From the IMG/VR virus record IMGVR_UViG_3300022562_000659: a stretch of 64,000 nucleotides of DNA; one strand, 5' to 3'. Origin of the DNA: a virus (taxonomy: Duplodnaviria > Heunggongvirae > Uroviricota > Caudoviricetes). Below, piece after piece: positions 3,001 through 64,000 of this stretch. Positions within the stretch are counted from its first letter, which is position 1. Every line of letters starts with the position of its first letter. The notes under the pieces are model-generated. The model searched no databases. It had not been told where the DNA came from and saw only the letters and a program-made list of their open reading frames with translations. The position numbers were made by a program, and so were the translations under genes.

Positions 3001-3113
3001 CTAAAAAGTCAGGAAATATTCGATTAAGAATAGAAAATATTATAAGAAATGAGTCTTCCTCTTCAGGTACATCATTTGATATGGAGTGTATAGAATGGCC
3101 TCAGATAATCTAA
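3..3113 (+). CDS. large phage structural protein, probable tail fibre/tail spike (5'-partial)
   Basis: Track ORF 144..3113 begins on TTG. The same frame has no stop back to nt 3, so the gene probably starts upstream of the window. It is at least 989 aa and sits immediately upstream of the fibre-like paralogs and lysis cassette. Confidence 0.5.
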   Translation, partial: PIILEKADNKVYSKALSSASEGISFSYPKNDTKSSYLNPYDASSYTRLWEVWDTRTNKRLNFGPIISIADGADEYKVEGAGRSAFLNDYYSSIKTFYGRIDYIVEEMRYENVAVSPSTSILVHNQDEDDADMTSVFGSLYSVSEDRDKYYNLSKRSKDFIIDEQTGYIPLGKIEPPRTFSTTSEYWTGTGASDSVLIDFGAEYDISRIKLMFPWWGGPQRASNRTYDFKMAGYLEGSTYNVWDRNLGNYTELVDSTLLLGGDSRIVTTPDRPYEFYVGTTASGLGTQINSFNLLGGHEGPLRMRYLLTYISDVHAWYGTDNDAKASHEGYAFQCDPTYRPGDDSYFGNRIGQMTYKKKNGTIVEKEIPDEVIKPANDCHASIVELGAYQEIIPKDTIKPLAIQRIDNNNMQISYSHTPRTSEMTKITVDGKYYRKFEPGTLFRKFKVSWSGATNTYYKFYKKDCSQCYPDGFSFGIVDDDNTLILSSDDTSYTDRNVTGKQYTKHIRTRGAQDAEVTWVDAWWGKTDPMSWGGSYSWTNLLDDYFVLSFRGESLKWYSTIPDNVSAAAVKIELRYKIDGSRKGAANVTADYWSAWTTLEASYQLPTNISSDVVYEIPYKSGILQPETSYELKVTLLTDGYCSVDSFEGYWSASFTEYNEDSSRIVLSQPDAFKQIYNKKFTGGSMYKWNKKGASASFQFEGDRIIIQSAKGRQHGKVTLILLTYEEGVNEYDPGTDNHVFIPVSKGGDPSDGSLTVNLSTGKRGQEIPNFIIFDSKDIFNDIGGLPWGKYMMKVIYTPAEKYTASINETGSSSFQYRCKNCNPKTSSKTASIYRYVYLDAIGAHERIGVSVNFEQKSHLEIVKSLAEAIQVEWDAAESGLIFEPRLGSETDVALREGENTLVSYQITNDLTKVATRLLAYGSAIDGLDLFAITEDKKTREAFGRTITRQNDFRDIANYMQLIGLSRMELRRRNRPERRINISHTGENLNLERGDSFNLWTKKSGNIRLRIENIIRNESSSSGTSFDMECIEWPQII

Positions 3114-8205: not shown

Positions 8206-8223
8206 GATTTTAGTATTGACTGA

Positions 8224-8493: not shown

Positions 8494-9261
8494 ATGCCGT
8501 TCGTAGAAGTACATGATTATTCCACTACACGCAAGCGAACAAGTGATTCATACGTAAAGTTTACGCCAGAACATCGCACTGTTCTTCGTATGCTGGAAGA
8601 CCACCCATTGCTCGTATGGAAGCATTGGGTTCCCGAGGCTAACAATGGCCGGGGAATGATGGCAAACTGCCCTAATACTCAACCGGGTATGAAGGTTTGT
8701 CCAATTGAAAAGAGCCTTGTGGGTCGTGAGAAGGATGATCCCGAGGTATTACAGCGCAAGGCGAAGAAGAGATTCATTATCAATGTTCTAGACCGCACCC
8801 CGTTTGGTGCGTGCCCTTCTTGTTCTGCTCAGACGCCCAAGGGAAAGGCGTGTCAGGCTTGCGGAGCCAAGTTGCCCGCAAATCTTGAATACGCACCACT
8901 CAATAAGGTGAAGATTCTAGAGCAGGGTCCGCAGTTGTTCCAGAATGGTTTGAACGCTGTCGAGACAATGCAGAAGGAAGACTTCCCATCCGCAGATATT
9001 GTCGATTACGATATCGTGTTCACCACAACTGGTACAGGTCGTGATCGAAAGATTGCTCCGGTTCCACAGCAGCCTACGCTTGATGCTGATGGAAATGTTG
9101 TTCCCACTCCAGATGAATGGTTGATTGATCCCGAAACGGGTGATCCTCAACGCAAGTTTGATTTGTCTCTGTTGGCGGAACCGTCCTCTGTTGAAGAGAT
9201 TGAGGCAATGCTTTCAGGCGCTACCATTGATGAGTTGAATGCTATTCGTGGTGTCGCGTAA
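8494..9261 (+). CDS. putative ssDNA-binding protein with zinc ribbon (gp32-like?)
   Basis: It is the first gene of the replication module. It has a CxxC...CxxC ribbon (CPSCSAQTPKGKACQACG) and an acidic C-terminal tail. The assignment is tentative. Confidence 0.3.
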   Translation: MPFVEVHDYSTTRKRTSDSYVKFTPEHRTVLRMLEDHPLLVWKHWVPEANNGRGMMANCPNTQPGMKVCPIEKSLVGREKDDPEVLQRKAKKRFIINVLDRTPFGACPSCSAQTPKGKACQACGAKLPANLEYAPLNKVKILEQGPQLFQNGLNAVETMQKEDFPSADIVDYDIVFTTTGTGRDRKIAPVPQQPTLDADGNVVPTPDEWLIDPETGDPQRKFDLSLLAEPSSVEEIEAMLSGATIDELNAIRGVA

Positions 9262-9271
9262 GGGGTAGCCC

Positions 9272-9646
9272 ATGTTCTCAGAAGAGGATGCTAAATCTCT
9301 TTCTGAGTGGCGGGTTGAATTGAAGAGAAACGGAAGGACTCATTGGTTGAGATTTTATTCAGCCATGATGGGTTCTTCCGTTTCATCTGCTCCTAGATTC
9401 TACAAGGCACTCAAATTGTATGGTGAGTGGCCCATGTTTGAAGCAATAGTCGCCTCGTCTTCCGCCACCCTCAATGGTGACCCTCTCAATTATGTGTTGA
9501 AGGTATGTTCTGCCAAGTGGAAGGAAATGCAGACAGATGCAGATGAAGAGGATGAATACCTTGCTGAGATCGAGAGAATCAAAGATGCCAGCCACAAGAG
9601 AAATGAAGAGTTGGCTGCTAAATTGAAGAAGGTGCAGGATGGATAG
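9272..9646 (+). CDS. hypothetical protein
   Basis: 124 aa ORF with a GGGGTAGCC RBS-like sequence. Confidence 0.4.
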   Translation: MFSEEDAKSLSEWRVELKRNGRTHWLRFYSAMMGSSVSSAPRFYKALKLYGEWPMFEAIVASSSATLNGDPLNYVLKVCSAKWKEMQTDADEEDEYLAEIERIKDASHKRNEELAAKLKKVQDG

Positions 9647-10280
9647 TGCTATCCACTCCCTCACCGTATCACGCATACCTGCTAAAACCGGAATTGAATT
9701 TATACGTAAACATCATTATTCCCACGGATGCCACAACGGTCCCTTATGTTGGGGGTTGTTTGATGGGGAAACTCTCGTTGGTGCGTTAGCCATTGCCACT
9801 CCATGTAGTGAGAATGTCAGGGCTAGCGTTTTTGGTGTTGAATACAAACAGCATGTGACTGAGTTACATAGATTGGTAGTGTTGGATGGATACGGGAAAA
9901 ATACCGAATCTTATTTTATATCGAAAGTTTTACGAGACTTATACAAGCAGAGGCCCGACCTTTGGGCCGTCCTCTCTTTTGCGGATGCAACTGAGGGACA
10001 CGTCGGAACAATCTATCAGGCTACTAATGCAATATATACAGGACGTACTCAACGAGCATGGTTCTATCTTGATGGAGATCGTCTTAGGCATCCCCGACAA
10101 AACGGAATCAATATCTCCGCCGACGATGCCCGAAAAAGAGGATGGAGTCGTGTTAGAAGAGAGGGCAAGTATCGATACCTATTCCTCCTTCCTACAGCAA
10201 AGACAGAACGTAGACGGGTCCGGAGACTAGTTATTATGCCATCACTTCCCTATCCAAAGAAGGAGAGTTTGGGTGAGTAG
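9639..10280 (+). CDS. hypothetical protein (possible DNA-modification accessory, overlaps MTase start)
   Basis: 213 aa, translationally coupled (overlapping) with the downstream N6/N4 methyltransferase. HHYSHG and GTIYQATN motifs are present. Confidence 0.4.
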   Translation: MDSAIHSLTVSRIPAKTGIEFIRKHHYSHGCHNGPLCWGLFDGETLVGALAIATPCSENVRASVFGVEYKQHVTELHRLVVLDGYGKNTESYFISKVLRDLYKQRPDLWAVLSFADATEGHVGTIYQATNAIYTGRTQRAWFYLDGDRLRHPRQNGINISADDARKRGWSRVRREGKYRYLFLLPTAKTERRRVRRLVIMPSLPYPKKESLGE

Positions 10281-11001
10281 GCTTATTCTTGGGGATTGTA
10301 TCAAGGTAATGAAAAATACCATTGAAGATGCATCTATTGACATGATTTTATGCGACTTACCTTACGGAATAACAGGAATCAGTTGGGATATTCCTATACC
10401 TTTTGCTCCATTATGGGAGCAGTATGAGCGTATCATCAAGCCTAACGGGGCTATAGTGCTGACCGCCGCACAACCATTTACAAGTGCGCTTGTGATGAGC
10501 AATCCATCCCTATTCAAATATGAGTGGATATGGGAAAAGGACAAGCCAAGTAATTTTGGTGCAGCAAAGAGTCAACCATTACGATACCATGAGAACGTGC
10601 TTGTATTCTATAAGCGTCCTCCAACATACAATCCAGTAATGTGGAAAGGTAATCTTAATCATTCCGTGGGTAAGGGCATACGAAAAGGTTCTGATGAACA
10701 TGGCAAGGGAGCTGTTGTTTACTACAAGAACAATAATGGTATGAAGTATCCCAAGTCAGTGATTAAATTCAATCGGGAGACTGGGCTGCACCCCACACAG
10801 AAGCCTGTGTCATTGTTTGAATATTTAATCAGAACGTATACCAATGAGGGAGAAACTGTTCTCGATAATGCATGCGGGAGCGGAACTACAGGTATTGCTT
10901 GTTTGAATTCAGGTCGAGACTTTATCCTTATTGATAATGATTTGCAGCATTTTGATACTGCAAGGAAAAGAATTGAGGAATATGAATTTAATTCCGTATA
11001 A
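10273..11001 (+). CDS. DNA methyltransferase, beta-class N6-adenine/N4-cytosine (motif IV before motif I)
   Basis: DLPYG (DPPY-type motif IV) is near the N-terminus. The SAM-binding motif I LDNACGSGTTG is near the C-terminus. Confidence 0.85.
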   Translation: MSRLILGDCIKVMKNTIEDASIDMILCDLPYGITGISWDIPIPFAPLWEQYERIIKPNGAIVLTAAQPFTSALVMSNPSLFKYEWIWEKDKPSNFGAAKSQPLRYHENVLVFYKRPPTYNPVMWKGNLNHSVGKGIRKGSDEHGKGAVVYYKNNNGMKYPKSVIKFNRETGLHPTQKPVSLFEYLIRTYTNEGETVLDNACGSGTTGIACLNSGRDFILIDNDLQHFDTARKRIEEYEFNSV

Positions 11002-12301
11002 TGATGATTTTGAGCGTGCAGTAATTGTTGGTGTTCTTCAAGACCCAATGCTATTGCCACGCATAACTGAATTTATTGAGCCAGCGGATTTCTACAAAGA
11101 AAACCACAAAGAAATCTTCAAAGCAATTTCCTCTACAGCACCAGACAATCTTGATAGCCTGACGATTGAGGATAAATTGCGCTCCAATGAAGGGGCATTG
11201 ACATACTTTCGTGAGTTGGTACAGGACTCAGAAAAGATTCTTCCAAGCCTATCCAACATCATGTTCTATGCGGAGACTATCAAGGGAAAATCCAAACTTC
11301 GTGCGGGTATTGACCTAGGCAGAGAGATCACAGCTGTCTGCTATGCCCCAACATCTGATCCTGATGAGGCTATTCAGCAATTGGAGCAGATGTTTGCACA
11401 GTTTCTACAGGCTCGTGTTTTAGATAACAAACTTGAATCCACTACGGAGTCATTCAAGAAATTTATCGAGGGATTGAATACGCGAGCAACCAAGGTTGAG
11501 GGAGTCAAATCCGGATTCATTGAAGTAGACCTGATGCTACAACGAATGGAGGGATTGATTGTCCTTGCTGCTCGTCCGAGCATGGGTAAGACTGCATTTG
11601 CTATCAATATAGCACGAAATATTGCAGCGACTCGTCCTGTCTTGTTCTTTTCTCTAGAGCAGAGCAAAGAACAGGTGTTTGAACGGCTCTTAGCCGCAGA
11701 AGCGGAAGTTGATCTAGAAGATATTCGCAGTGGTGCATTTCTCGCTGACAAGAAATCGATGGAGAGTATACAGGATGCAAATTACAGGCTAGAGCATGTG
11801 ACTGACAATATCCATATCGATGACAAGGCACAGGTTCCTGCAAGTTATATCTCTTCGGTGTCCCGACAGAAGCGGTATGAATGGGGAGATTTGGGACTGA
11901 TTGTGGTTGACTATCTGCAAATCATGCGCCATACGTCATCTGGTAACAAGACCGATCAGATTGGTGATACTGTCAATGAATTGCGTGCACTAGGAAAGGA
12001 ATTAGATTGTCCTATTATTCTGCTTTCCCAGTTGAGTAGAAATAATGAGCAACGTACTGAAGGAAAGGTTAAGAATAGGCGACCGGAATTAACTGACCTT
12101 CGTGGTTCTGGAGATATTGAACAATCAGCAGATGTGGTTATATTCCTCTACAGAGATTCTTATTATGGTACTCCTACAACAGACACTGATGTGGCAGAGA
12201 TTATCATCAAGAAGAATCGTAATGGTCGCCAAGGAATTGTACTACTAGACTGGGAGAGTGCATATGTTAAATTTAAGAATCCCAACGTTCGACGCCGCTG
12301 A
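10982..12301 (+). CDS. replicative DNA helicase, DnaB-like
   Basis: ATG at 10982 follows a GAGGAA RBS. The DnaB N-domain signature IPYNDDFERAVIVGVL, Walker A GKTAFAINIA, Walker B IVVDYLQ and LSQLSR arginine-finger region are present. Confidence 0.85.
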   Translation: MNLIPYNDDFERAVIVGVLQDPMLLPRITEFIEPADFYKENHKEIFKAISSTAPDNLDSLTIEDKLRSNEGALTYFRELVQDSEKILPSLSNIMFYAETIKGKSKLRAGIDLGREITAVCYAPTSDPDEAIQQLEQMFAQFLQARVLDNKLESTTESFKKFIEGLNTRATKVEGVKSGFIEVDLMLQRMEGLIVLAARPSMGKTAFAINIARNIAATRPVLFFSLEQSKEQVFERLLAAEAEVDLEDIRSGAFLADKKSMESIQDANYRLEHVTDNIHIDDKAQVPASYISSVSRQKRYEWGDLGLIVVDYLQIMRHTSSGNKTDQIGDTVNELRALGKELDCPIILLSQLSRNNEQRTEGKVKNRRPELTDLRGSGDIEQSADVVIFLYRDSYYGTPTTDTDVAEIIIKKNRNGRQGIVLLDWESAYVKFKNPNVRRR

Positions 12302-54864: not shown

Positions 54865-55161
54865 ATGGACGATATATCGTGGAGACATTTCATTAACAAT
54901 CAATATACGGGACCTGATCTTCCATCAGATGGGAAAGAGGCCCCTAAAATGGAAAATACTAATAAACCAGGTTGGGATGGGGAAACTCCTGTCTTACTAC
55001 AAAAAGTAATAACAGAAGTATATGTATACACCTCTTTAAGTACTAAAGAGATACTGTATAGTGCTGATTCTATACAAGATGTGCAGATCCTAGGAAATAT
55101 GCGCTTGTCTGAGGCCAAGAAGATTATTGACGGGGCTAAGAAAAAGCGCCGTCGCAGGTAA
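54865..55161 (+). CDS. hypothetical protein with basic C-terminus
   Basis: 98 aa ending KKKRRRR. Confidence 0.4.
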   Translation: MDDISWRHFINNQYTGPDLPSDGKEAPKMENTNKPGWDGETPVLLQKVITEVYVYTSLSTKEILYSADSIQDVQILGNMRLSEAKKIIDGAKKKRRRR

Positions 55162-55241
55162 TTTTTGGGTTGAAGCCGAAGCTCTCTTTCAGTTATAGTT
55201 GCATGTAGGCGACCTTGCCTCATCCATCTGGAAGGGAATTT

Positions 55242-55913
55242 GTGAAAAGGCTTGCTGTACTCGATTTGTTCTGCGGTGCTGGTGGTGCCTCAGAGGGATA
55301 CAATCGCGCGGGAGCATTAGTCACAGGCGTGGATATCAATCCCCAGCCTAGATACCCATTTCAATTTGTACAGGCTGATGCACTTGCAGTACTCCGTGGG
55401 GAAGTCCCTACGATTGATCCTAATGCATTTGATCTTATCCACACTAGTCCACCGTGTCAACGATACAGCACGATGACCAAGCGTTGGGGTACAGAGAATG
55501 CTCATCCCGATCTTGTTGCTCCAACTAGGGAATTACTTCAGAAACTAGGCAAATTTTACGTTATCGAAAACGTGCCGGGATCACCATTGAACAATCCTGT
55601 GCGATTGTGCGGGTCTATGTTCAATCTAGGTATCGCTGGTACTGAATGGCAGCTTCGTCGTCATCGTTTATTTGAAGCATCATTTTTTATTATGTCACAA
55701 AAGTGCGCCCATAAGGGACGCGCTGTAGGGGTGTATGGTAACTCAGGGGGATCATCAAAGAGGGATGGATTAGAGTTTCCCAATACAGATGGATGGCGTG
55801 AGGCCATGGATATTTCTTGGATGACTGGTAAGGAATTGAGTGAATCTATTCCTCCAGCATATACCCGATATATTTTTGAAGAATTTAAGTTTTGGATTCG
55901 GAAGGATGGCTGA
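55242..55913 (+). CDS. short C5-cytosine methyltransferase-like protein (paralog 2)
   Basis: GTG after GGAAGGGAA. It has LDLFCGAGG, SPPCQRYS, YVIENV, RRHRLFE and IPPAYT. It is collinear with 12264..13028. The stop codon lies inside the 5' end of tRNA-Ser. Confidence 0.7.
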   Translation: MKRLAVLDLFCGAGGASEGYNRAGALVTGVDINPQPRYPFQFVQADALAVLRGEVPTIDPNAFDLIHTSPPCQRYSTMTKRWGTENAHPDLVAPTRELLQKLGKFYVIENVPGSPLNNPVRLCGSMFNLGIAGTEWQLRRHRLFEASFFIMSQKCAHKGRAVGVYGNSGGSSKRDGLEFPNTDGWREAMDISWMTGKELSESIPPAYTRYIFEEFKFWIRKDG

Positions 55914-55987
55914 GTGGCAAAGCGCCGGTTTGCTAAACCGAGGCCGTCGTAACAGGCGCGTGGGTTCGATCCCCTCTCCTTCCGCCA
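55900..55987 (+). tRNA. tRNA-Ser (anticodon GCT), long variable arm
   Basis: Perfect 7-bp acceptor GGAAGGA/TCCTTCC. The anticodon loop is TTGCTAA. It has a long extra arm, TTCGATC T-loop, G discriminator and encoded CCA. Confidence 0.75.
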
Positions 55988-55999
55988 TTAGGAGATTAA

Positions 56000-56233
56000 G
56001 TGCAAAAGAATAATATAGTAGAATCAGTATTAACTGGAATAATTTTTATATTTGTTCCTTTGTTAGTAGGTGGGGCTATTATAGGTATCACATATCTAGT
56101 ATTTCAGCAAATTTTAGCCCTGATTAACTACTTTAAGTGGACACCTGTAGAAGTTATTGTTATCAGTATTATATTGCTTGCAGCATGGATTTTAGGTGCC
56201 GGTACGATTGTGGTGTTTGATAATGATTCTTAA
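56000..56233 (+). CDS. small membrane protein (2-3 TM)
   Basis: Hydrophobic segments IIFIFVPLLVGGAIIGITYLVF and VIVISIILLAAWILGAG. Confidence 0.45.
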   Translation: MQKNNIVESVLTGIIFIFVPLLVGGAIIGITYLVFQQILALINYFKWTPVEVIVISIILLAAWILGAGTIVVFDNDS

Positions 56234-56606
56234 TCGTAGAATTGCTGTTGTTGGTTCTCGGGAATTTCGCAATTATACACAGTTAGACAAGAAACTGTCT
56301 GAAGTTGTGGGATTTGATGATGAGTTAGTCAGTGGTGGCGCGATAGGTGTTGATTCTATGGCCCAGCGATGGGCAAAGGATCACGGAAATGCAATCCACA
56401 TCTATTATCCGCGATGGAACGATCCGCATACTGGAACGTATGATCGTGGAGCTGGATTTAAGAGAAACAAGGTTATTGTAGAAAATGCCGATCTTGTTCT
56501 CGCTTTTTATCAGCGGGGACGATTTCAGCAAGGTGGAACAGCTAACACGGCCAAGTGGGCGCGTGAGTTGGGGGTACAGTTGTTTGAGTTTGAGGAAGAG
56601 GAATAA
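56223..56606 (+). CDS. SLOG/DprA-like Rossmann-fold protein (DUF2493-like)
   Basis: IAVVGSREFRNY...VVSGGAIGVDSMAQRWA. Confidence 0.4.
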   Translation: MILNRRIAVVGSREFRNYTQLDKKLSEVVGFDDELVSGGAIGVDSMAQRWAKDHGNAIHIYYPRWNDPHTGTYDRGAGFKRNKVIVENADLVLAFYQRGRFQQGGTANTAKWARELGVQLFEFEEEE

Positions 56607-56608
56607 AG

Positions 56609-57580
56609 GTGCTAGGACTTCTTATTAGTGCAACAATCTTTATTGTGACGATTGCACTTATCAGTTACTTTGTAGTAAAGCGATTTATTTGGGAGGATCG
56701 TGCAGAAAAGGCAAAGTATGCCCGAAGTGATAAGCCACCTATTGGGAAGGCTCCACGTACTTGGCTTATTATTCCTACGATTATTTTAGGGTTTCTATTT
56801 TTAATTGCTTCTTTCGGAATCACAGAGGTCCCCGCTGGTTCTGTTGGTGTTATTACTTCGTTTGGTAGGGTAAATGAGGGAACACTTCCTTCCGGCCTTA
56901 CGTATGTTGTTCCAGTTATGAATCAGGTTGTCATCATTGATACGCGGGTTCAGGTTTATGAATTCGCTGATATTGAGGGGGCAACTAGTGATACGCAGGC
57001 AGTCAGACTATCAGGTACAGTAAACTATCGTGTTGATGGAGTTACTGCTTGGCGCTTGTACCGTGATGTTGGTATTGATTTTGCAACTAAGATTTTCAAT
57101 CGTCCTGCGGAAACAGCTCTAAAGAGTATTGTACCAAAGTATACTGCTATTCAAGTTATCTCAAAGCGAGAGGAAATTGCTCTAGCCGCTACTGCAATGC
57201 TGGAGCCGCAGGTTGAACAGTATGGCGTGTCTGTTGAAGCATTCTATGTCTCAAATATTGGACTGAATGTTGCGTTCCTTGATTCTGTCGAGCAGAAGCA
57301 GATTGCGCAGCAGGAGACTCTGCGTGCACAGCAACTAGTTGAAAAGGCAAAGCAGGAAGCAAACGCACGTATTGAAACTGCAAAGGGTGAGGCTCAGTCT
57401 GCTATTGAGCGTGCCCGTGGTGAGGCAGAGGCTAATCGTCAGATCAGCGCATCTTTGACTGATCAAGTGCTTTTGTCCCGATATATCGATAAATTGAGTG
57501 ATAATATTCAGGTAATGCTGGTTCCTGCGGGCCAGAATACTCTTCTTGATTTGAAGAGCCTCATTTCGCAGAAGCAGTAG
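56609..57580 (+). CDS. SPFH/band-7 (stomatin/prohibitin/HflK-like) membrane protein
   Basis: N-terminal TM helices followed by an SPFH-like core. The C-terminal coiled coil is Ala/Glu/Gln-rich (AQQETLRAQQLVEKAKQEANARIETAKGEAQ). Confidence 0.65.
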   Translation: MLGLLISATIFIVTIALISYFVVKRFIWEDRAEKAKYARSDKPPIGKAPRTWLIIPTIILGFLFLIASFGITEVPAGSVGVITSFGRVNEGTLPSGLTYVVPVMNQVVIIDTRVQVYEFADIEGATSDTQAVRLSGTVNYRVDGVTAWRLYRDVGIDFATKIFNRPAETALKSIVPKYTAIQVISKREEIALAATAMLEPQVEQYGVSVEAFYVSNIGLNVAFLDSVEQKQIAQQETLRAQQLVEKAKQEANARIETAKGEAQSAIERARGEAEANRQISASLTDQVLLSRYIDKLSDNIQVMLVPAGQNTLLDLKSLISQKQ

Positions 57581-57587
57581 ATTAAAC

Positions 57588-57673
57588 GGAGGGTTGGCCG
57601 AGTGGTAAGGCGCTAGTCTTGAAAACTAGTGAGGCGTAATGCTACAGGGGTTCAAATCCTCTACCCTCCGCCA
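57588..57673 (+). tRNA. tRNA-Ser (anticodon TGA), long variable arm
   Basis: Acceptor GGAGGGT/ACCCTCC. 3-bp D-stem. Anticodon stem CTAGT/ACTAG with loop CTTGAAA. TTCAAAT T-loop and CCA. Confidence 0.8.
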
Positions 57674-57690
57674 TTACTCGGGAATTAAGG

Positions 57691-57849
57691 ATGAATGACT
57701 TTTCTTGTTATTGTAACTGCAAGTGTTGGGGGGATTGTTACGATCCCGAATTCACAAATGATGAAATCTGTGGTGATTGTGAGTGCCACGGCACAGGTCT
57801 AGATGATGACAGTATGGAGGAATCCGAAAATGGCGAGTCCATCTATTGA
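57691..57849 (+). CDS. 52-aa Cys-rich peptide (not in ORF track)
   Basis: ATG after TAAGG. Sequence MNDFSCYCNCKCWGDCYDPEF...CGDCECHG. Confidence 0.4.
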   Translation: MNDFSCYCNCKCWGDCYDPEFTNDEICGDCECHGTGLDDDSMEESENGESIY

Positions 57850-58090
57850 TCCTTGGGGATACACTGGGGCGGTTGGTGATAATGGGAACACATCGGTTTT
57901 GCAATCCGAAGTTGAGGGTTCAATTCCCTCACTGTCCACCAAATCCTATTGGTATGAGTATTTTACCGATTATTGTCCAGTATGCGCTCGATCTGATGAT
58001 TATAAGATAAGAGTATATGACAGGCCCAAGCCTGATACATATGAAGAGCGTCATCATTTTAAGGAAACATTTGACTACTGTATCTACTGA
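57830..58090 (+). CDS. hypothetical protein
   Basis: ATG after GGAGGAA. A CPVC motif is present. Confidence 0.4.
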   Translation: MASPSIDPWGYTGAVGDNGNTSVLQSEVEGSIPSLSTKSYWYEYFTDYCPVCARSDDYKIRVYDRPKPDTYEERHHFKETFDYCIY

Positions 58091-58105
58091 TTGGGATAAT
58101 TCAGA

Positions 58106-58180
58106 GGGGACGAGCCTAACTGGTTAAGGGTCTGTCCGCAAAACAGGTGTTAGTGGGTTCGATTCCCACCGTCCCCTCCA
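58106..58180 (+). tRNA. tRNA-Cys (anticodon GCA) candidate
   Basis: Perfect acceptor GGGGACG/CGTCCCC. T-arm GTGGG-TTCGATT-CCCAC. CCA end. The anticodon loop is CCGCAAA, with an unusual C33. The D-stem is weak. Confidence 0.55.
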
Positions 58181-58371
58181 AATAGTTGAATTTTAGTAAA
58201 TAAGGGGCTTGACCACGGAACATGGATATAAGTAAACTATCTCCAGAAGAGCGAAAGCGCATCGCCTCTGCTTGGGACAAGCCGTTGAGTATGCCAAGGC
58301 CCGTTCCAAAGAGTGAACCTAAGAAAAAGGGCCGAAAGCCCAAAGAAACATCAGAAGAATAATATTCGTGC

Positions 58372-58440
58372 AGTAGTGTAGAATTCAGTTACTTCTCAAC
58401 TGTTAATTGATAATAAAGCCTGGATTCGCCTTAATTCTCT
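58372..58440 (+). ncRNA. structured repeat element E0 (family of 7; homolog of 60585..60655)
   Basis: Starts GTAGTGTAGAATTCAGTTACTTC and ends CTGGATTCGCCTTAATTCTC. The ends can pair. It lies upstream of the Ro60-like gene. Confidence 0.35.
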
Positions 58441-58487
58441 GCCATAATATTTATCATCACCTAGAAGGTGTATTGAAGGAGAAGGAA

Positions 58488-60035
58488 ATGGCTACTTTAA
58501 ACAAGTCACGCAGTACCGTGCGTGCTGCAAAAAATAAGTCTGAGATTACTGTTAATCTTCACGGTAGTCCTGCATTTAAGATGGCTGCAACTGATCGTCT
58601 TATCGAGCGCACTGTAGGTGCGTTCTGGTCGGAAGATGCATTCTACAGCAAGGGAAGCACTATTGCTGCTGAGATTGTCAAGGACGTTAGGGAAGTCGCT
58701 CAAACGAATCCTAAGTTTCCTTTGCAGTTGGCGGCATGGGCAAGAAATGAGTTGTATATTCGTACAACTCCGCAGGTTCTTCTAGTAGAGGCTGCGAATA
58801 TCGAGGCGTGCAAGCCGTTTGTTCGTGAGTATACTCCGAAGATTGTCAAGCGTGCTGACGAGTTGGGTGAGGTAATCGCTTATCAGTTACAGGCGCATGG
58901 AAAGCCTATTCCAAATTCGTTGAAGAAGGGATTGGCTGATGCATTCGCAAAGTTTGACGAGTATCAGTTGAACAAGTATGATTCCAGCAAGACTGAGGTT
59001 TCGCTGGGGGACGTACTGCACTTGATTTATCGTCGTGAGGGATATCCGGTTTCCAAGGCCCTTTGGAATTATCTTGTCAATGATGAGGTAGATGCAGAGG
59101 CATTGCCAAAGATCGGCGCTCTCAAGGAAATGTTGAAGTCGAAGACTTTCGATGACAATGCACGCGATCTTATTGCGAAGTCTAGCGCAACATGGGAAAC
59201 TGTGATAAGCCACTTTGGATCAACCAAGGAGGTTTGGGAATCTGTAATTCCTAACATGGGATATATGGCACTTCTTCGTAATTTACGCAACTTTGAACAG
59301 AAGGGGGTTGATCTCAATCCTGTTATTGCCCGGATTTCTGATCCGGAGCAGGTTAAAAGATCAAAGCAACTTCCGTTCAGATTTTACAGTGCCCTTGTAA
59401 ATATTGAAAAGCCTGTTCTTCGGACAGCTGTTTCTCGTGCATTTGAGGCTTCTGTTTCAAATGTTTCGCTTCCGGGCAGAACAGGAATTCTTGTTGATCT
59501 TTCAGGTTCAATGAGTAGTCGATTGTCCGACAAGTCTAATCTCTCATACCGTGATGTTGGTTCTATTATGGGGGCTATCGCTGTCCGCAAGGCAGATGAT
59601 AGCGAGGTTGTTGGATTTGGTTCTACAGCGGAACGCATTAGGTTGAATCAAGATGACACAATGATGACCAACAAGGACAGGATCAGTGGTACTGATGTAG
59701 GCGGTTCAACATACGCTGGACTAGGAATGAAAGTTTTGGCTGATTATGGTGAATTTGATCGTATTATTCTTATTTCGGATATGCAATGCTATGGTCAATC
59801 TCCCAACTATTTAACTGGATATACCACAACAGTGAATGAAGAGTGGAAGAAGTACAGTAACAAGTATCCAAATGCTCGCTTGTACTCCTTGGATTTGCAT
59901 TCATATGGAACAAAGCAGTTTCCATCTACTGATGGAAAGGTAACAACGATCACTGGCTGGTCTGATAAGGTTCTTGATTTTATCAACCTCTCTGAAAAGA
60001 GAAATACCATGATCTCCGAAATTTCAAAGTGGTAG
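58488..60035 (+). CDS. rsr: Ro60/TROVE-domain protein with C-terminal vWA (Rsr-like)
   Basis: ATG after GAAGGAGAAGGAA. The TROVE-like segments MALLRNLRNF and LPFRFYSAL resemble Ro60 ALLRNLG and HPFHIL. The vWA MIDAS motif is ILVDLSGSMS. Length and domain order match Ro60. Confidence 0.7.
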   Translation: MATLNKSRSTVRAAKNKSEITVNLHGSPAFKMAATDRLIERTVGAFWSEDAFYSKGSTIAAEIVKDVREVAQTNPKFPLQLAAWARNELYIRTTPQVLLVEAANIEACKPFVREYTPKIVKRADELGEVIAYQLQAHGKPIPNSLKKGLADAFAKFDEYQLNKYDSSKTEVSLGDVLHLIYRREGYPVSKALWNYLVNDEVDAEALPKIGALKEMLKSKTFDDNARDLIAKSSATWETVISHFGSTKEVWESVIPNMGYMALLRNLRNFEQKGVDLNPVIARISDPEQVKRSKQLPFRFYSALVNIEKPVLRTAVSRAFEASVSNVSLPGRTGILVDLSGSMSSRLSDKSNLSYRDVGSIMGAIAVRKADDSEVVGFGSTAERIRLNQDDTMMTNKDRISGTDVGGSTYAGLGMKVLADYGEFDRIILISDMQCYGQSPNYLTGYTTTVNEEWKKYSNKYPNARLYSLDLHSYGTKQFPSTDGKVTTITGWSDKVLDFINLSEKRNTMISEISKW

Positions 60036-60126
60036 TCGGGTGGGATTAAGTGAAACTTAGAGCGACACAGCAAGCGGTATCAAACCCGTTAGCAAAGGCG
60101 GTATAAATCCGCGATCCCCCTCCTAT

Positions 60127-60201
60127 GGCCCTATCGTCTATCGGACAGGACACCAGACTTTCAATCTGATAAGCGGGGTTCGACTCCCCGTAGGGCTACC
60201 A
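60127..60201 (+). tRNA. tRNA-Glu (anticodon TTC)
   Basis: Acceptor GGCCCTA/TAGGGCT (G-U at 1-72). D-stem GTCT/GGAC. Loop CTTTCAA. T-arm CGGGG-TTCGACT-CCCCG. A and CCA at the 3' end. Confidence 0.7.
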
Positions 60202-60219
60202 ATGTCAATAGAAATTATG

Positions 60220-60355
60220 AGTAGTGTGGTTATCAGATACTTCGCTAGGGACGACAGAGTGTAGGTGCAATTCCTGCTCCCCGTGCAAATCATACGGGGA
60301 TAGTGTAACAGCAGCACATGACAATATTCTGTAATCGTTTGTTCTCTCATAATTA
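60220..60355 (+). ncRNA. structured repeat element E1
   Basis: Starts AGTAGTGTGGTTATCAGATACTTCG. It contains a 6-bp hairpin CCCCGT...ACGGGG. The 3' end is TCTCTCATAATTA, like other family members. Confidence 0.3.
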
Positions 60356-60433
60356 TTTTCTAGAACATTAGAGGTTCTTCCCCTGCACCGGCTCAACCGC
60401 TTAAAACATGAAATGATGTGTGCAGCAAATTAG

Positions 60434-60580
60434 GTAGTGTAGTTAAGAGGTACTTCGAAGCCAAATTTAACTTTGGTGGTGTAATGGGCAGCACGCTGGA
60501 CTTTTAATCCAGAGGTTTCGGTTCGATTCCGTACCTGTTCTCTGACGATTTATTCTCCTAATTAAATTGATATTAAGTTT
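60434..60580 (+). ncRNA. tRNA-like structured element E2 (Y-RNA-like candidate)
   Basis: The 5' end GTAGTGTAGTTAAGAGGTAC can pair with the 3' end GTACC...CTCT...CTAATTA. The internal tRNA-like module has a D-arm (GTGTAATGGGCAGCAC), an anticodon-like arm (CTGGA-CTTTTAA-TCCAG) and a T-arm (GGTTCGATTCC). No canonical acceptor stem is present. Confidence 0.4.
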
Positions 60581-60584
60581 GACG

Positions 60585-60655
60585 TAGTGTAGAATCCAGA
60601 TACTTCGGTTTTGACAGCCCCCATGTTTCTTCTGGATTCACTAAATTCTCGTCAA
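60585..60655 (+). ncRNA. structured repeat element E3 (long bulged hairpin)
   Basis: TAGTG-tag-AATCCAGA pairs with TCTGGATT-CACTA, a 13-bp stem with a 3-nt bulge. The loop is about 30 nt. Confidence 0.4.
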
Positions 60656-60685
60656 ATATTCCAGTTAGTATTACTACGTATAGCG

Positions 60686-60812
60686 TAGTGTTGATATCTG
60701 ATACTTCTGACGATTTATGTACAATATTTGGGGGCCTCGTCAATCGACTGGCTTGCGACAGGTTATAGGCCCCGTTTTACAGATATCTTACAATAGCTTC
60801 TCGTTATACGTA
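60686..60812 (+). ncRNA. structured repeat element E4
   Basis: The 5' end GTAGTGTTGATATCTGATACTTC has GATATCTG pairing with CAGATATC near the 3' end. The internal stem is GGGGCCT...AGGCCCC. Confidence 0.35.
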
Positions 60813-60816
60813 TTAT

Positions 60817-60892
60817 ATCTCTGTCGTCTAATGGTTCAGGATCGCTGTTTCTCAGGCAGCAAATACGGGTTCGAATCCCGTCAGGGATACCA
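60817..60892 (+). tRNA. tRNA (probable Glu, anticodon CTC)
   Basis: Acceptor ATCTCTG/CAGGGAT (one G-U). T-arm ACGGG-TTCGAAT-CCCGT. A and CCA at the 3' end. Anticodon stem GCTGT/GCAGC with loop TTCTCAG. The D-stem is only 3 bp, so the identity is less certain. Confidence 0.5.
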
Positions 60893-60909
60893 GATATATA
60901 TTCGTTAGG

Positions 60910-61045
60910 ATAGTGTAGAGATCAGTTACTTCGCACTTGTAATGCCCTAGTTGTTGGTTCGAATCCAACCGGTTGCAGAAATGCACTGTAGCTCAATTGG
61001 TAGAGCAGGATATGTTCTGATTTCGCCTAATTCTTCCTAAATATA
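60910..61045 (+). ncRNA. tRNA-like structured element E5 with T-arm module preceding D-arm module
   Basis: The 5' end ATAGTGTAGAGATCAGTTACTTCG is followed by a T-arm (GTTGG-TTCGAAT-CCAAC). A textbook D-arm follows (TGTAGCTCAATTGGTAGAGCA). The 3' end CTGATTTCGCCTAATTCTTCC is homologous to the E0 3' end. Confidence 0.4.
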
Positions 61046-61240
61046 AAAGTCATCGCCCATCCAGTAGCACAACGTACTAGAATAGGTTCCCGAGTATCTG
61101 GCCGGTGTGCCAGCACCGTATACTTGTAGAAAATTCTTTTGTGCTACCGGATGCGCGACGGCGCAGAATCCGTATGCTGTAGGAATGTTCTGTGATAGCG
61201 TCCAGTAAATTCCAGTAAATGCAGTAAGCGGTATAAAATT

Positions 61241-61378
61241 TAGTGTAGTGACTTGTAACGGTTACTTCGTAAATCAATGGGTAGATTATTTGACTTCAAA
61301 TCAAAATGTTGTGGGTTCAAATCCCACCGAAGCCGAAAGGCTTGCCGCAAGGCTATCCGTTACTAATTTTTCTCACTA
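61241..61378 (+). ncRNA. Y-RNA-like element E6: terminal stem enclosing a tRNA-like domain with TCA anticodon
   Basis: The 5' end TAGTG...GTAACGG (61241..61261) pairs with the 3' end CCGTTAC...CACTA (61357..61378). The tRNA-like core is 61263..61335. It has D-stem AATC/GATT, anticodon stem TTTGA/TCAAA with loop CTTCAAA (anticodon TCA), T-arm GTGGG-TTCAAAT-CCCAC, and an acceptor that is only 5/7 paired with no CCA. Two tetraloop hairpins (AGCC-GAAA-GGCT and GCC-GCAA-GGC) follow. A GCGGTATAAAAT motif lies 5 nt upstream. Confidence 0.45.
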
Positions 61379-61388
61379 GTTAATACAT

Positions 61389-61463
61389 TCCCTCGTAGCT
61401 CAGCGGTAGAGCACTCGGCTGTTAACCGATTGGTCCTAGGTTCGAATCCTAGCGGGGGAGCCA
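61389..61463 (+). tRNA. tRNA-Asn (anticodon GTT)
   Basis: Acceptor TCCCTCG/CGGGGGA (one G-U). D-arm GCTC-AGCGGTA-GAGC. Loop CTGTTAA. T-arm CTAGG-TTCGAAT-CCTAG. G and CCA at the 3' end. Confidence 0.75.
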
Positions 61464-61500
61464 TTATAAAAATTTGTCCTAACTAATTTTTTAGGTGGTG

Positions 61501-61716
61501 CATATGCTAGAACGTGGAAGAGCAATGACACGTCACCAACGTGATAGAAATATCAAGAAGCACAAGAAACTTCTTGATACACTATGGCGTAATGGTTGGG
61601 GAAACAGGCCGGAAGGTATTCTGGCAAAAGGAACTTATTTTCATCATCACCATTGTAATATATGTAGTAATCAAAAATATAATCGTGCGAAATTTAAGAG
61701 AACAAATATAGATTAA
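61501..61716 (+). CDS. small basic His-rich protein
   Basis: ATG after GGTGGTG. Lys/Arg-rich, with HHHHCNIC. Confidence 0.3.
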   Translation, partial: HMLERGRAMTRHQRDRNIKKHKKLLDTLWRNGWGNRPEGILAKGTYFHHHHCNICSNQKYNRAKFKRTNID

Positions 61717-61720
61717 ACGC

Positions 61721-61794
61721 AGAGGCTTCGTCTAACGGTAGGACTACTGACTTTGGATCAGTCGGTTGGGGTTCGAATCCCTGAGCCTCTGCCA
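61721..61794 (+). tRNA. tRNA-Gln (anticodon TTG)
   Basis: Perfect acceptor AGAGGCT/AGCCTCT. D-stem GTCT/GGAC. Anticodon stem ACTGA/TCAGT with loop CTTTGGA. TTCGAAT T-loop. G and CCA at the 3' end. Confidence 0.75.
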
Positions 61795-61816
61795 ATTTTT
61801 TTATTTGGAGATAACA

Positions 61817-62014
61817 ATGAATGATAACTGGCACATTGTTAATCGGGCTTCAGATGTTCGATCTGGTGACAATATAGCACTTCATGCTGTTGGTTACCAA
61901 TGTCGATGTGGTTGGTCTACAATAGACCTAACCGCTGTAGCAGAACATGTAGTGAGGAACCAATATGAAGTCAAACCTCCACGACCCAAGCAGCCTACTT
62001 TGGGTCACAAATAA
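61817..62014 (+). CDS. hypothetical protein
   Basis: ATG after GGAGATAACA. A CRCGW motif is present. Confidence 0.35.
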   Translation: MNDNWHIVNRASDVRSGDNIALHAVGYQCRCGWSTIDLTAVAEHVVRNQYEVKPPRPKQPTLGHK

Positions 62015-62032
62015 TGACTATCGAGGCAGATT

Positions 62033-62725
62033 ATGCATTCCTTGACGTTGGCACTCCTTAGTTGGAGTGCCCATAGGACTCTTATAAATACATTAGAGAG
62101 TTATAAAACATTTGGATTAGATAAGTTAGCCGCACAAAAAATTATCTTCTTCCAGGAAATATCGGCTATGGATCTCAAAATAGCCAATAAATATGGATAT
62201 ACGGCATTCGGAGATAAAACCAATGTCGGTATTGCCGAGGGGTATCGACGGTTGGTGGAAAAGTCCACGCAGCCGTTCTTCATATTTCTTGAAAATGACT
62301 GGATGCTTCTAGAAGATCCTAAAGAAGCAATCGCGCAAGGAATTACATACCTTGACTCTAATACTACTGATGTGGTACGTTATCGCCATAGAAAGTATCC
62401 CGGCGAGCCTCTTTGGACATACCAGTTCAAGGACCACGAATATGATCGCCCGACGCATCTGCTTGATGCTGTCCATTGGACTCTTGATCCTGAGAAGTTT
62501 GCAGAGATTGAGAAGATTTCAGACGATCCTTGGTATCGTGCAAATGCTAAATATGCCAATTGGACAAACAATCCCACAATGTTTAGAACTGATTTTCTTA
62601 AGAAGTGGATATTGCCGAATATAGGCACACGGGATGCAGAGGTTGATCTTCAGCCTTGGTGGGAACAGCAAGATTTCCTTGTGATGCAAGGACATGGCCT
62701 ATTCGCACACAGGAGAGTTGGATAA
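62033..62725 (+). CDS. putative glycosyltransferase-like protein (GT-A-like, tentative)
   Basis: 230 aa. The N-terminus LALLSWSAHRTLINTLESY and the acidic FIFLENDWM region are reminiscent of GT-A families. This is weak evidence. Confidence 0.3.
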   Translation: MHSLTLALLSWSAHRTLINTLESYKTFGLDKLAAQKIIFFQEISAMDLKIANKYGYTAFGDKTNVGIAEGYRRLVEKSTQPFFIFLENDWMLLEDPKEAIAQGITYLDSNTTDVVRYRHRKYPGEPLWTYQFKDHEYDRPTHLLDAVHWTLDPEKFAEIEKISDDPWYRANAKYANWTNNPTMFRTDFLKKWILPNIGTRDAEVDLQPWWEQQDFLVMQGHGLFAHRRVG

Positions 62726-63063
62726 TGTGGGGAAGTAGAGCAAGTACATGGGGCACGAAAGCACATAAGACTTCTAGTATGAAGTGGCACCTTGTTGATG
62801 AGGATTCCCTTGAGGAAAAGATGATAGAGATCGGATATGGGGAACACGGGAAAGAGGTTTCTCGTACTTTTGGTGCACTGATGTGCGGGGGCAAAAAGCA
62901 TGAGTGGAAAGTGTACAATAAGTATAGTGATACATATTATGATATACGTATGCCGCTTGTATTGAAAGATACCGTCAATCTCAACGGAAATGGCGTATGC
63001 ACATACTGTAGGAATTTTCGGTTAGAGCAACTTGGATTGAAGGATAACAAGGTGATGGGATGA
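62725..63063 (+). CDS. hypothetical protein
   Basis: ATGTGG start overlapping the previous stop. A CTYC motif is present. Confidence 0.35.
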   Translation: MWGSRASTWGTKAHKTSSMKWHLVDEDSLEEKMIEIGYGEHGKEVSRTFGALMCGGKKHEWKVYNKYSDTYYDIRMPLVLKDTVNLNGNGVCTYCRNFRLEQLGLKDNKVMG

Positions 63064-63650
63064 GTGAAGTAGAAAGCAGATTCACACCCGCTACGGATTG
63101 GTGCCCGCATACTGAATACTGGCACTCACCAGATTCAGAGGCAACTGAGGACGAGGTTACAGAATTCATAGGGTCGCTGGTACGACTGATCCAGCCCGAG
63201 TTTGTGTTGGAGACAGGCTCCTACAAGGGCCATACGACGCTGGAAATCTCCCGTGCGATCTATCTCAACGGGCATGGCCGTGGGGAGTCCATTGAAGTTG
63301 ATAGTGAGTTGGCTAAAGTTGCGCAACGACGGCTCGACAATGCCATGGGCGATAATGCCCGTATGAAAGTGCTGAATATCAATTCTATGGAATATGAGCC
63401 GCCTGAGAATATTGATTTCGCATTCTTTGATTCTTGGCAAGATGGTAGAATTCAGGAATTGACTCGTTATCACGATCTTGGATTTATCCAGCAAGGAATG
63501 GTCTTTGCTGTGCATGATACAGCTCCACATCATCAGGTGAGAAAGCATTTTATCCCCGCTCCCGAAATTACAACTTCCCAAGGAACATTCAGTTTTGAAA
63601 TTATTGATTTTCATACTCCCCGTGGACTCATTCTAGGGCAAATAATGTAA
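63060..63650 (+). CDS. class I SAM-dependent methyltransferase (CmcI/Methyltransf_24-like O-methyltransferase)
   Basis: EFVLETGSYKGHTTLEI glycine-rich SAM motif, followed by acidic residues in FFDSWQD. Confidence 0.55.
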   Translation: MSEVESRFTPATDWCPHTEYWHSPDSEATEDEVTEFIGSLVRLIQPEFVLETGSYKGHTTLEISRAIYLNGHGRGESIEVDSELAKVAQRRLDNAMGDNARMKVLNINSMEYEPPENIDFAFFDSWQDGRIQELTRYHDLGFIQQGMVFAVHDTAPHHQVRKHFIPAPEITTSQGTFSFEIIDFHTPRGLILGQIM

Positions 63651-63922
63651 TGGATACCTCAAGCAAATATCTTATTGATCATTACCGCAAGTTGCATCGC
63701 ATATCTTTTCGTACAGGTAGTTACAGTGAAGAAAGGTGGTGGACTGATTGTGGGGCACATTCCTTCACACAACAGAGTTTGGATTTCTATAGAAGTATAG
63801 GATTGATCAAGGGAAAAGACGACGAGGTAATTGAGCATAAGAAAGCAGTTTGCGGAAATTGCTTTAAGCACAATAGAACGATACGAATTTCAGCAACAAG
63901 AGGAATAATTCCGTGCGAGTAG
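63650..63922 (+). CDS. hypothetical Cys-containing protein
   Basis: 90 aa. CGNCFKHN. Confidence 0.35.
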   Translation: MDTSSKYLIDHYRKLHRISFRTGSYSEERWWTDCGAHSFTQQSLDFYRSIGLIKGKDDEVIEHKKAVCGNCFKHNRTIRISATRGIIPCE

Positions 63923-64000
63923 GGTTTTTAAACAATCAGATTGATAATCGTGGTACTGGTAATGCAGTATTTAACTATGCCCACTATAATGAGGTGATTC
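63918..64000 (+). CDS. hypothetical protein (3'-partial, continues beyond window)
   Basis: GTG start overlapping the previous stop. The open frame (VRVGFLNNQIDNRGTGNAVFNYAHYNEV) runs to the window end. Confidence 0.3.

Follow-up and report, generated by a model that had tools for sequence, protein, structure and literature searches.

Y RNAs are modular RNAs encoded within 4 kb of Ro60 and on the same strand (PMC4201824). The bacterial and phage class YrlA has been defined by this same-strand proximity, by a 5′ motif, GNCGAAN0-1G, thought to bind Rsr, and by a permuted tRNA-like domain; in Deinococcus radiodurans, Yrn2, tRNA-Asp and Yrn1 are co-transcribed, and in Mycobacterium smegmatis the Y RNAs lie 5′ of rsr and are processed from a common precursor (PMC4201824). 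The Ro60 of Thermus phage phiLo binds stem-bulge-stem Yrl RNAs via CGAA, single U substitutions in which lower affinity 3–4 fold, and its ribonucleoprotein complexes with host PNPase (PMC12135203). Here we describe a Ro60/Rsr-like gene (rsr) and seven structured elements, E0 to E6, in a 64-kb phage genome segment (64,000 nucleotides (nt) of IMG/VR virus record IMGVR_UViG_3300022562_000659; hereafter, the window). E0 to E6 are very probably phage-encoded Y RNA-like noncoding RNAs that serve the adjacent Ro60. Candidate Y-RNA-like RNAs beside rsr had been proposed in a preliminary description made from the letters of the window alone, and this proposal is now supported by a TROVE domain match, by covarying stems and by linkage to Ro60 in other genomes.

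The protein encoded by rsr matches TROVE (PF05731; 125.7 bits, E = 3.7e-36) and vWA_Ro60 (PF25045; 30.6 bits against a cut-off of 27.7, E = 3.8e-7) in Pfam, and its translation (58488–60035) contains DLSGS, a MIDAS (metal-ion-dependent adhesion site) motif. The preliminary description had staked its proposal on a TROVE match for this protein, and the match found is strong. It had named the domains correctly and given a length of 542 amino acids, which is that of the mechanical open reading frame (ORF) from TTG 58407 and would overlap E0; translation from ATG 58488, which follows GGAGAAGG, gives 515, and this is the start common to the orthologue in the syntenic IMG/VR contig L001 (54% identical). 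The best match in the PDB is phiLo Ro60 (9KOP/9L5Y, residues 21–501, E = 1.6e-28), followed by D. radiodurans Rsr (2NVO, E = 5.8e-4). In an alignment that applies the numbering offset of the phiLo paper, the RNA-contact residues K141, K142 and R178 are kept and R163 is replaced by Lys. An exact-protein look-up of the window Ro60 returned no record.

The DNA motif TAGTG-N8-18-TACTTC occurs at seven + strand sites in the window, where 0.26 would be expected by chance, and these are the sites of the seven related elements of the preliminary description; all lie on the + strand within 1.4 kb of the Ro60 gene. The tighter pattern given there for all seven, (G/A)TAGTGT(A/G)G-N8-11-TACTTC, holds in five and fails in E4 (TAGTGTTG) and E6, whose structural register is TAGTGAC at 61246. 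Two minus-strand motif matches, at 150–171 and 8506–8527, were set aside as chance, being inside + strand ORFs and without stems.

All seven elements share one order of parts: stem 1, one bulged nucleotide, two base pairs (bp), an internal loop, stem 2, an invariant UACUUC and a payload. Stem 1 forms between the 6–11 nt directly 5′ of UAGUG and the nucleotides directly 3′ of a UUCU near the 3′ end, and the base pairing of termini noted earlier, with four elements as examples, is true of all seven. The bulged nucleotide is U, C or A. The internal loop is asymmetric, with YGNA on its 5′ side (UGUA in the window) and R-N2-8-UU on its 3′ side. Stem 2 has 7–9 bp, its 3′ strand lying 8–14 nt upstream of the 3′ UUCU, and UACUUC follows its 5′ strand directly, is single-stranded and opens the payload of about 20–90 nt. 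In terms of this architecture, the 5′ motif of the preliminary description (UAGUGUA) is not the start of a tRNA D arm but the bulge, the two pairs and the 5′ side of the internal loop, and its ‘N8-11’ spacer is the 5′ strand of the second helix (‘N8’). A D-arm-like AGUG:UACU hairpin or pseudoknot was considered for loop positions 2–3 and rejected, because loop variants with GG, GC, GU or AC keep UACUUC and the compensation is found in the 3′ strand.

The helices differ from element to element. In E0, an outer stem AAUAUU/AAUAUU plus GCAG/CUGC is followed by UAGUGUA, stem 2 (GAAUUCAG/CUGGAUUC) and UACUUC, with GCCUUAAUUCU as the 3′ loop. Stem 1 is AAUUAUGAG/CUCAUAAUU in E1, AAUUAGG/CCUAAUU in E2, GUUUGACG/CGUCAAAU in E3 and an 11-bp helix in E4; stem 2 is GAAUCCAGA/UCUGGAUUC in E3, GAUAUCUG/CAGAUAUC in E4, GAGAUCAG/CUGAUUUC in E5 and GUAACGG/CCGUUAC in E6. 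RNAfold alone recovers stem 1 in all seven elements and both stems in E0, E3, E4, E5 and E6; the fold z-scores range from −0.4 to −3.1.

Covariation was assessed on an alignment (A1) of 40 handles, the parts other than the payload, from about 20 loci, all cut to the same register (stem 1, 6 nt; loop, 7 nt; stem 2, 7 nt; UACUUC; stem 2′, 7 nt; loop, 5 nt; stem 1′, 6 nt) and scored as ((((((.((....(((((((......)))))))...)))))))). Standard pairs fill 99.0% of its 600 cells, as against 53.3% with shuffled partners and 44–53% with partners slid by 1–3 columns, percentages that for stems 1 and 2 are partly fitted because the script delimited these stems by a complementarity search. Compensatory double changes are present at all 15 pairs, and the covariation score is 1.18 against 0.24, a value reached by none of 500 shuffles. 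Two checks are free of the fitting. When 3′ halves are exchanged between elements under the same search, the mean summed helix length falls from the 14.3 bp of cognate halves to 6.0 bp (37 elements, 1332 swaps), and the two bulge-proximal pairs, which played no part in the selection, are formed in every one of the 40 handles (AU in 32 and GC in 8; GC in 36, CG in 3 and UA in 1). The covariation and these checks therefore define the handle as stem 1, bulge, two pairs, YGNA/R..UU loop, stem 2 and UACUUC.

Table 1 Coordinates of the Ro60 gene, the Y-like elements and the interleaved RNA genes in the window
Feature	Position	Strand	Evidence
Ro60/Rsr-like gene, 515 amino acids, TROVE HEAT-repeat ring and vWA domain	58488..60035	+	Pfam; PDB matches; L001 orthologue
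E0, minimal Y-like RNA just 5′ of rsr	58361..58451	+	Motif; minimum free energy (MFE) and centroid folds give both stems; A1 row
E1, Y-like RNA, degenerate YrlA-type payload	60213..60354	+	Motif; stems; fold z = −2.4
E2, Y-like RNA, normally ordered tRNA-like module	60428..60563	+	Rfam tRNA 46.9 bits; stem 1; fold
E3, minimal Y-like RNA, 81 nt	60577..60657	+	Stems; fold z = −2.9
E4, Y-like RNA, unclassified three-way payload	60675..60812	+	Stems; fold z = −3.1
E5, Y-like RNA, YrlA-type tRNA-like domain	60905..61040	+	Rfam YrlA 34.5 bits; stems; RNAalifold consensus
E6, Y-like RNA, complete tRNA cloverleaf payload	61240..61379	+	Rfam tRNA 58.6 bits; ARAGORN ‘SeC(tca)’
Unclassified conserved structured RNA, about 200 nt, between E5 and E6	61041..61239	+	Fold; conservation
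tRNA-Glu(UUC), canonical	60127..60201	+	ARAGORN; Rfam tRNA 54.4 bits
tRNA-Glu(CUC), canonical	60817..60892	+	ARAGORN and Rfam
tRNA-Asn(GUU), canonical	61389..61463	+	ARAGORN and Rfam
tRNA-Gln(UUG), canonical; array ends here	61721..61794	+	ARAGORN and Rfam

A nucleotide search of the whole region against GenBank phages returned generic tRNA matches and no relative. Contig L001 of IMG/VR is syntenic, with tRNA-Ser, Ser, Ala, rsr, elements and tRNAs and then a methyltransferase gene, and its four elements have the same layout and different stem sequences; they include orthologues of E1 (at 8217; 72.6% over 113 nt) and E6 (76.6% over 137 nt, anticodon CUU). Repeated units with tRNA fragments, one of which ARAGORN calls as a tRNA, might also be decaying tRNA pseudogenes or functionless selfish repeats. 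That origin is extremely improbable given compensatory changes at every helix position beside invariant loops, orthologous elements that are 73–77% identical where their Ro60 proteins are 54% identical, stem sequences that differ by copy, and the lack of terminal inverted repeats or target duplications.

Scans blind to proteins tie the handle to Ro60. The bare DNA motif TAGTGTAGN8TACTTC was found at 120 loci in IMG/VR, 14 of which have a Ro60 homologue (25–57% identity) beside it on the same strand; for scale, only 334 of 50,697 GenBank phage records have any Ro60 homologue. Of the motif matches, 29 of 48 in the Ro60 loci and 11 of 162 elsewhere directly adjoin a terminal stem that TCT closes. 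A longer motif gave seven matches in 185,579 bacterial and archaeal genomes: in Clostridia metagenome-assembled genomes (MAGs), Acetivibrio straminisolvens JCM 21531, a gammaproteobacterial MAG and a Halothiobacillus MAG. The Ro60 start lies less than 300 nt downstream on the same strand in five of these seven, the other two being at the edge of the fetched DNA, and in four (L133, L135–L137) the element adjoins Ro60 without a surrounding tRNA array.

These loci also bear on whether the elements act within the tRNA cluster as tRNA-derived punctuation, being structured spacers or signals for processing by RNase P, Z or E, and not as stable RNAs. Their interleaving with tRNAs, the tRNA-like arms of several of them, and the resemblance of stem 1, often of 7 bp, followed by U-A-G-U-G-U-A-G to an acceptor stem, U8-A9 and the start of a D arm speak for such a role. 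It is nevertheless very unlikely: bacterial elements adjoin Ro60 where there is no tRNA array, the stems are rare at motif matches away from Ro60, and a loop and UACUUC that are invariant across Ro60 proteins 25–57% identical exceed what a cleavage signal needs.

A second descriptor, anchored only on TACTT and the two helices, widens the range of the handle as a Ro60-linked RNA. Ro60-adjacent matches carry UGGUGUA/..GUUCC (L005), CGCUGCA/..CUUGC (L007), UGUCGAA/..GUUAC (L021) and UACUGCA/..UUUGU (L070). In Caulobacter phage CcrColossus (JX100810), eight tandem copies (2745–3960 of locus L130) with UGGCGUA/..GUUCC lie directly 5′ of the TROVE gene, and in Arthrobacter phage Atuin (OK040794) the same architecture, with the loop A-AGCGCA/..UUUCU, is found by Ro60. 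The elements are unannotated in both phages, and an annotated ‘tRNA-Gln’ and two ‘terminators’ of CcrColossus lie inside them. Folding and covariance analysis of E0 to E6, as suggested in the preliminary description, thus led to structured, covarying, Ro60-linked RNAs in many unrelated genomes. Locus L070, with at least seven Y-like elements by its Ro60, also encodes a full-length transfer-messenger RNA (10041–10389, − strand; Rfam 119.5 bits).

E0 alone might have a separate role, as a leader that acts in cis: Ro60 would bind this Y-RNA mimic in the 5′ untranslated region and so autoregulate its mRNA. The rsr start codon follows the end of E0 by 37 nt with no terminator-like site between, and the bacterial loci too have an element directly 5′ of Ro60. 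We regard this role as unlikely, since the closest relative, L001, has no element 5′ of rsr and a minimal one just 3′ instead, and M. smegmatis is already known to have Y RNAs 5′ of rsr that are processed from one shared precursor (PMC4201824); the L001 synteny lends no support to a conserved autoregulatory leader. The stretch of 90 nt from the rsr stop codon to tRNA-Glu (60036–60126, + strand) reads GGGUGGGAU-UAAGUGAA-ACUUAG...AUCCCCCUCC. It could represent an eighth, degenerate element that has a terminal stem, UGAA as its loop and ACUUAG and lacks a second stem. Its fold z-score is only −1.3; L001 has a proper minimal element at the equivalent position.

The payloads are varied. The preliminary description had seen tRNA-like modules in several elements, and we find them in E1, E2, E5 and E6; the permuted domain of the YrlA type (T arm, hairpin, D arm) is confined to E5 and, in degenerate form, E1, and is not found in E0, E2, E3, E4 or E6. 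The interior of E5 aligns with positions 17–92 of the YrlA model of Rfam (RF02553; E = 1.4e-4 in 9 kb, the score lying below the gathering score of 69), with a canonical T arm (GUUGGUUCGAAUCCAAC) and D arm (GUAGCUCAAUUGGUAGAGC), and no match to this model was found for E0–E4 or E6. Of the two Rfam searches proposed earlier, that for YrlA thus gives a sub-threshold match over the T arm, hairpin and D arm core of E5, and that for the metazoan Y_RNA model (RF00019) gives none at E ≤ 10 in 55000–64000; GGUCCGA is absent as well. In E1, a T-like arm (GUAGGUGCAAUUCCUGC), a hairpin (CCCCGUG..ACGGGG) and a D-like arm (GUGUAACAGCAGCAC) follow one another. A second alignment (A2), of 19 relatives at full length among which are E5, E1 and elements of CcrColossus and Atuin, was folded with RNAalifold. 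Its consensus comprises stem 1 and a T arm, then a 7-bp hairpin whose pairs each show 6–10 double changes, then a D arm, and E1 aligns with the T/hairpin/D class.

E2 and E6 contain tRNA modules in normal order. The E2 payload has a D arm, an anticodon arm with the loop CUUUUAA (UUU) and a T arm without an acceptor stem, its Rfam tRNA alignment being restricted to model positions 6–65. E6 holds a full cloverleaf (model positions 3–68) with UCA in the anticodon loop and a 5-bp acceptor-like stem, CUUCG/CGAAG, drawn from the conserved CUUCG. Neither has a seven-bp acceptor stem with free ends, and both are enclosed by stems 1 and 2. The payloads of E0 and E3 are minimal, and E4, for which Rfam gave no match, has an unclassified three-way fold. 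ARAGORN calls tRNAs inside Y-like elements, ‘tRNA-SeC(tca)’ at 61262–61336 in E6 and ‘tRNA-Lys(ctt)’ in its L001 orthologue, and the ‘tRNA-Gln’ annotation of CcrColossus (L130 3167–3234) likewise falls within an element; such calls are tRNA-like payloads embedded within the handle stems and probably not free tRNA genes. ARAGORN makes nine tRNA calls in all between 55.9 and 61.8 kb. The preliminary description had counted five canonical tRNAs in the 1.8 kb downstream of rsr; as the SeC call is the E6 payload, there are four (Glu-UUC, Glu-CUC, Asn and Gln, by ARAGORN and Rfam).

Besides the partial fitting of the stem percentages, several results speak against E0 to E6 being Y RNAs of this Ro60. 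GNCGAAN0-1G, and CGAA itself, are absent from all seven handles, which have (R)UAGUGU(A/G/U)G instead. The YrlA gathering score is reached neither in the window nor in any related locus, viral or bacterial, where relatives score 30–45 bits. A covariance model of the payload-deleted handle retrieved no real element, its best matches being noise at 9–13 bits, because the payload is longer than the model window, and the family is therefore without an Infernal E-value; mixing cores with full-length elements gave no long-insert model, as MAFFT split the 3′ strand of stem 2. The phiLo contact R137 is Pro in the window Ro60. Finally, loci L030 and L114 have several good elements, and the fetched DNA, roughly 12 kb, has no Ro60 gene. 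The L114 elements span 10708–12066 (+) in a locus that encodes a CCA-adding enzyme, and those of L030 span 9608–10915 (−) in one that encodes a PARP/WGR-domain protein.

At the position of CGAA, the A1 columns read UGUA in the window, CGUA or CGCA in CcrColossus and Atuin, and CGAA in one element of L021 (L021_5202). Placed in the series GNCGAAG, GGCGUAG, AGCGCAG and AGUGUAG, the window motif looks like a divergent form of the known one, and the comparison of these sequences suggests a divergent version of the YrlA motif.

The two loci with no Ro60 in the fetched DNA also allow that another protein reads the handle and that Ro60 just happens to share an RNA-repair neighbourhood with it; the reader might be the Band-7/SPFH protein nearby, an enzyme of RNA ligation or repair, the product of the small basic ORF at 58222–58362 or a host factor. 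Genes for Band-7 and SLOG proteins do lie 0.9–2 kb upstream, and a preprint, citing Burroughs and Aravind 2016, proposes Band-7 with tRNA-like RNAs as an alternative to Ro60 with YrlA (bioRxiv 10.1101/312249). We nonetheless judge another reader to be decidedly unlikely. Band-7 is kept in only one related locus (L096), whereas in 14 viral and 5 bacterial loci that differ greatly in their genes the motif is found with Ro60, the bacterial elements lie less than 300 nt upstream of Ro60, and a stem-bulge-stem with YGNA at the position of CGAA matches the experimentally defined Ro60 site (PMC12135203).

The preliminary description had also likened the 5′ motif of E1 to a segment of vertebrate Y4 RNA. 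The segment was quoted correctly for human Y4 (hY4; PMC8141670) and the match is real: over 26 aligned positions, E1 and hY4 nt 11–33 agree at 23, with three gaps of 1 nt, and no local match elsewhere in the window is better. It is restricted to E1, however, the other six elements scoring 6–8 against 15.5, and 3 of 100 window shuffles equal its score. Ten of the matched bases (GGUUAUCAGA) belong to the stem-2 strand of E1, which covaries freely in the family, and GUAGUG lies in the upper stem of hY4 and forms bulge and loop in the window. A match that is E1-specific and mostly in a freely covarying helix is no evidence of homology; we rejected hY4 homology as a family feature, shuffles matching as well, and the likeness of E1 to hY4 is probably chance.

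Between E5 and E6 lies a further structured RNA (61041–61239; MFE −67.3 kcal/mol, z = −5.2) that lacks the Y handle. It is conserved in L001 and partly in L096, in blocks that include AGUCAUCGC..AUCCRGUAG and CUACCGGAUGCGCGACGGCGCAGARUCCGUA, and a long-range helix covaries with L001 (AUCCAGUAGCAC/GUGCUACCGGAU against AUCCGGUAGUAAC/GUUACUACCGGAU). No match was found in Rfam or GenBank phages, and a 22-mer from it occurs in only two IMG/VR contigs, again just 5′ of an E6-type element.

Elsewhere in the window, ORFs encode ribonucleotide reductase, a DnaG-type primase, a family A DNA polymerase, a DnaB-like helicase, cytosine methylases and a RuvB-like ATPase. Upstream of rsr, a YspA/SLOG-domain gene (56196–56606, +) is followed by the Band-7/SPFH gene (56609–57580, +) and, 8 nt after it and about 0.9 kb 5′ of rsr, by tRNA-Ser(UGA) (57588–57673, +); the order of Band-7 and then a type-II tRNA is kept in L096. 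This arrangement fits the ‘Band-7-associated tRNA’ RNA-repair neighbourhood that the preprint credits to Burroughs and Aravind 2016 (bioRxiv 10.1101/312249). RtcB, Rnl and PNK-type RNA-repair enzymes were not found among roughly 25 of the larger ORFs, a scan that was not exhaustive. Immediately 5′ of E0 and rsr, a small basic ORF of 46 amino acids (...PRPVPKSEPKKKGRKPKETSEE; 58222–58362, +) has no Pfam match; a similar C-terminal peptide is encoded at the equivalent place in L001 (about 5778–5933).

For the transcription, processing, Ro60 binding and downstream effect of E0 to E6, we infer the following course. The array would probably be transcribed with its interleaved tRNAs as one or a few precursors, from which tRNA-processing enzymes would release the RNAs; no + strand intrinsic terminator was found within the array, and a scan for sigma-70 promoters did no better than shuffles. 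By analogy with D. radiodurans RYPER and phiLo Ro60–Yrl, the handle would dock each RNA on the phage Ro60, its stem-bulge-stem having the layout bound by the Ro60 outer surface, with UGUA at the position of the canonical CGAA. The payload may then gate the Ro60 cavity or tether Ro60 to host factors such as PNPase and tRNA-binding or RNA-repair enzymes, and RNA decay and quality control could be reshaped during infection. More speculatively, and on balance improbably, the seven to eight Y RNAs would form a library on one Ro60, with the tRNA mimics of their payloads as adaptors or decoys in counter-defence. The look-alike anticodon arms of tRNA-Lys(UUU) in E2 and of a UCA-reading tRNA in E6 (CUU in its orthologue) might sequester defence nucleases with which the host attacks tRNAs, or bring in enzymes that repair or modify tRNAs. 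If so, the Ro60/Y array would protect the phage tRNA set and would not be a general RNA-decay cofactor.

Homology is a poor guide to Y RNAs, and this whole branch escapes the curated model, even the copies in isolated, published phages such as CcrColossus and Atuin. The handle consensus offers a practical descriptor for Ro60-associated RNAs in phages and Clostridia-type genomes, and it supplies a natural set of variants where CGAA has been probed by experiment. It further points to one origin of erroneous tRNA calls, among them a false tRNA-Sec or suppressor call. It is evidence, too, that a phage can carry seven or eight Y RNAs that share a handle and have interchangeable payloads, so that the ‘tether or adaptor’ model of how Y RNAs function can be tested directly in a compact system.

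These RNAs are not a new class, because a phage Ro60 with adjacent Y RNAs is already known. Against the accessible literature, the novelty lies in the handle consensus and the covariation of the two pairs next to its bulge, in UGUA standing where CGAA is known, in an invariant UACUUC, in arrays as large as seven copies (CcrColossus has eight), in the diversity of payloads that one handle carries, and in the finding that the curated Rfam model misses an entire branch. Among known systems, the YrlA/YrlB RNAs of bacteria and mycobacteriophages (RF02553) resemble those of the window in lying on the same strand less than 4 kb from Ro60, in pairing their ends into a protein-binding stem with a conserved 5′-strand motif, in occurring several to a locus, short hairpin forms included, and, for YrlA, in the permuted tRNA mimic of T arm, acceptor-like hairpin and D arm shared with E5 and E1. 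The window differs from them in having AGUGUAG in place of GNCGAAN0-1G, an extra invariant UACUUC, a well-defined second stem, seven copies and not two, scores of 34–45 bits against the gathering 69, and payloads that include normally ordered tRNA-like modules with anticodon arms. YrlA is further characterised by Rsr/Ro60 binding and by modification through the tRNA enzymes TruB and DusA. The phiLo system likewise couples a phage Ro60 to adjacent stem-bulge-stem Y-like RNAs with the loop tetranucleotide at the same position; it has two RNAs (Yrl1 and Yrl2), both upstream and with CGAA where the native window sequence is UGUA, and, unlike in the window, tRNA-like payloads are not described. D. 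radiodurans Yrn1 has T and D arms split by an anticodon-like arm, as in E2 and E6, and tethers Rsr to PNPase, and Yrn1 and Yrn2 are co-transcribed with a tRNA as a polycistronic precursor and need Ro60 for their stability, but they have a metazoan-like helix of the GGUCCGA type on both strands and are cellular, not viral. Vertebrate Y RNAs are alike only in topology, with a terminal helix, a bulged pyrimidine, two bp and an internal loop. CcrColossus and Atuin have the identical layout of S1, bulge, 2 bp, YGNA, S2, UACUUCG, payload, S2′, R..UUSY and S1′ (S1 and S2, stems 1 and 2); the CcrColossus copies carry mixed payloads, Ro60 of Atuin sits within a tRNA cluster, as in the window, and the positions at which their loops differ from the UAGUGUA/..UUCU of the window are the covarying ones.

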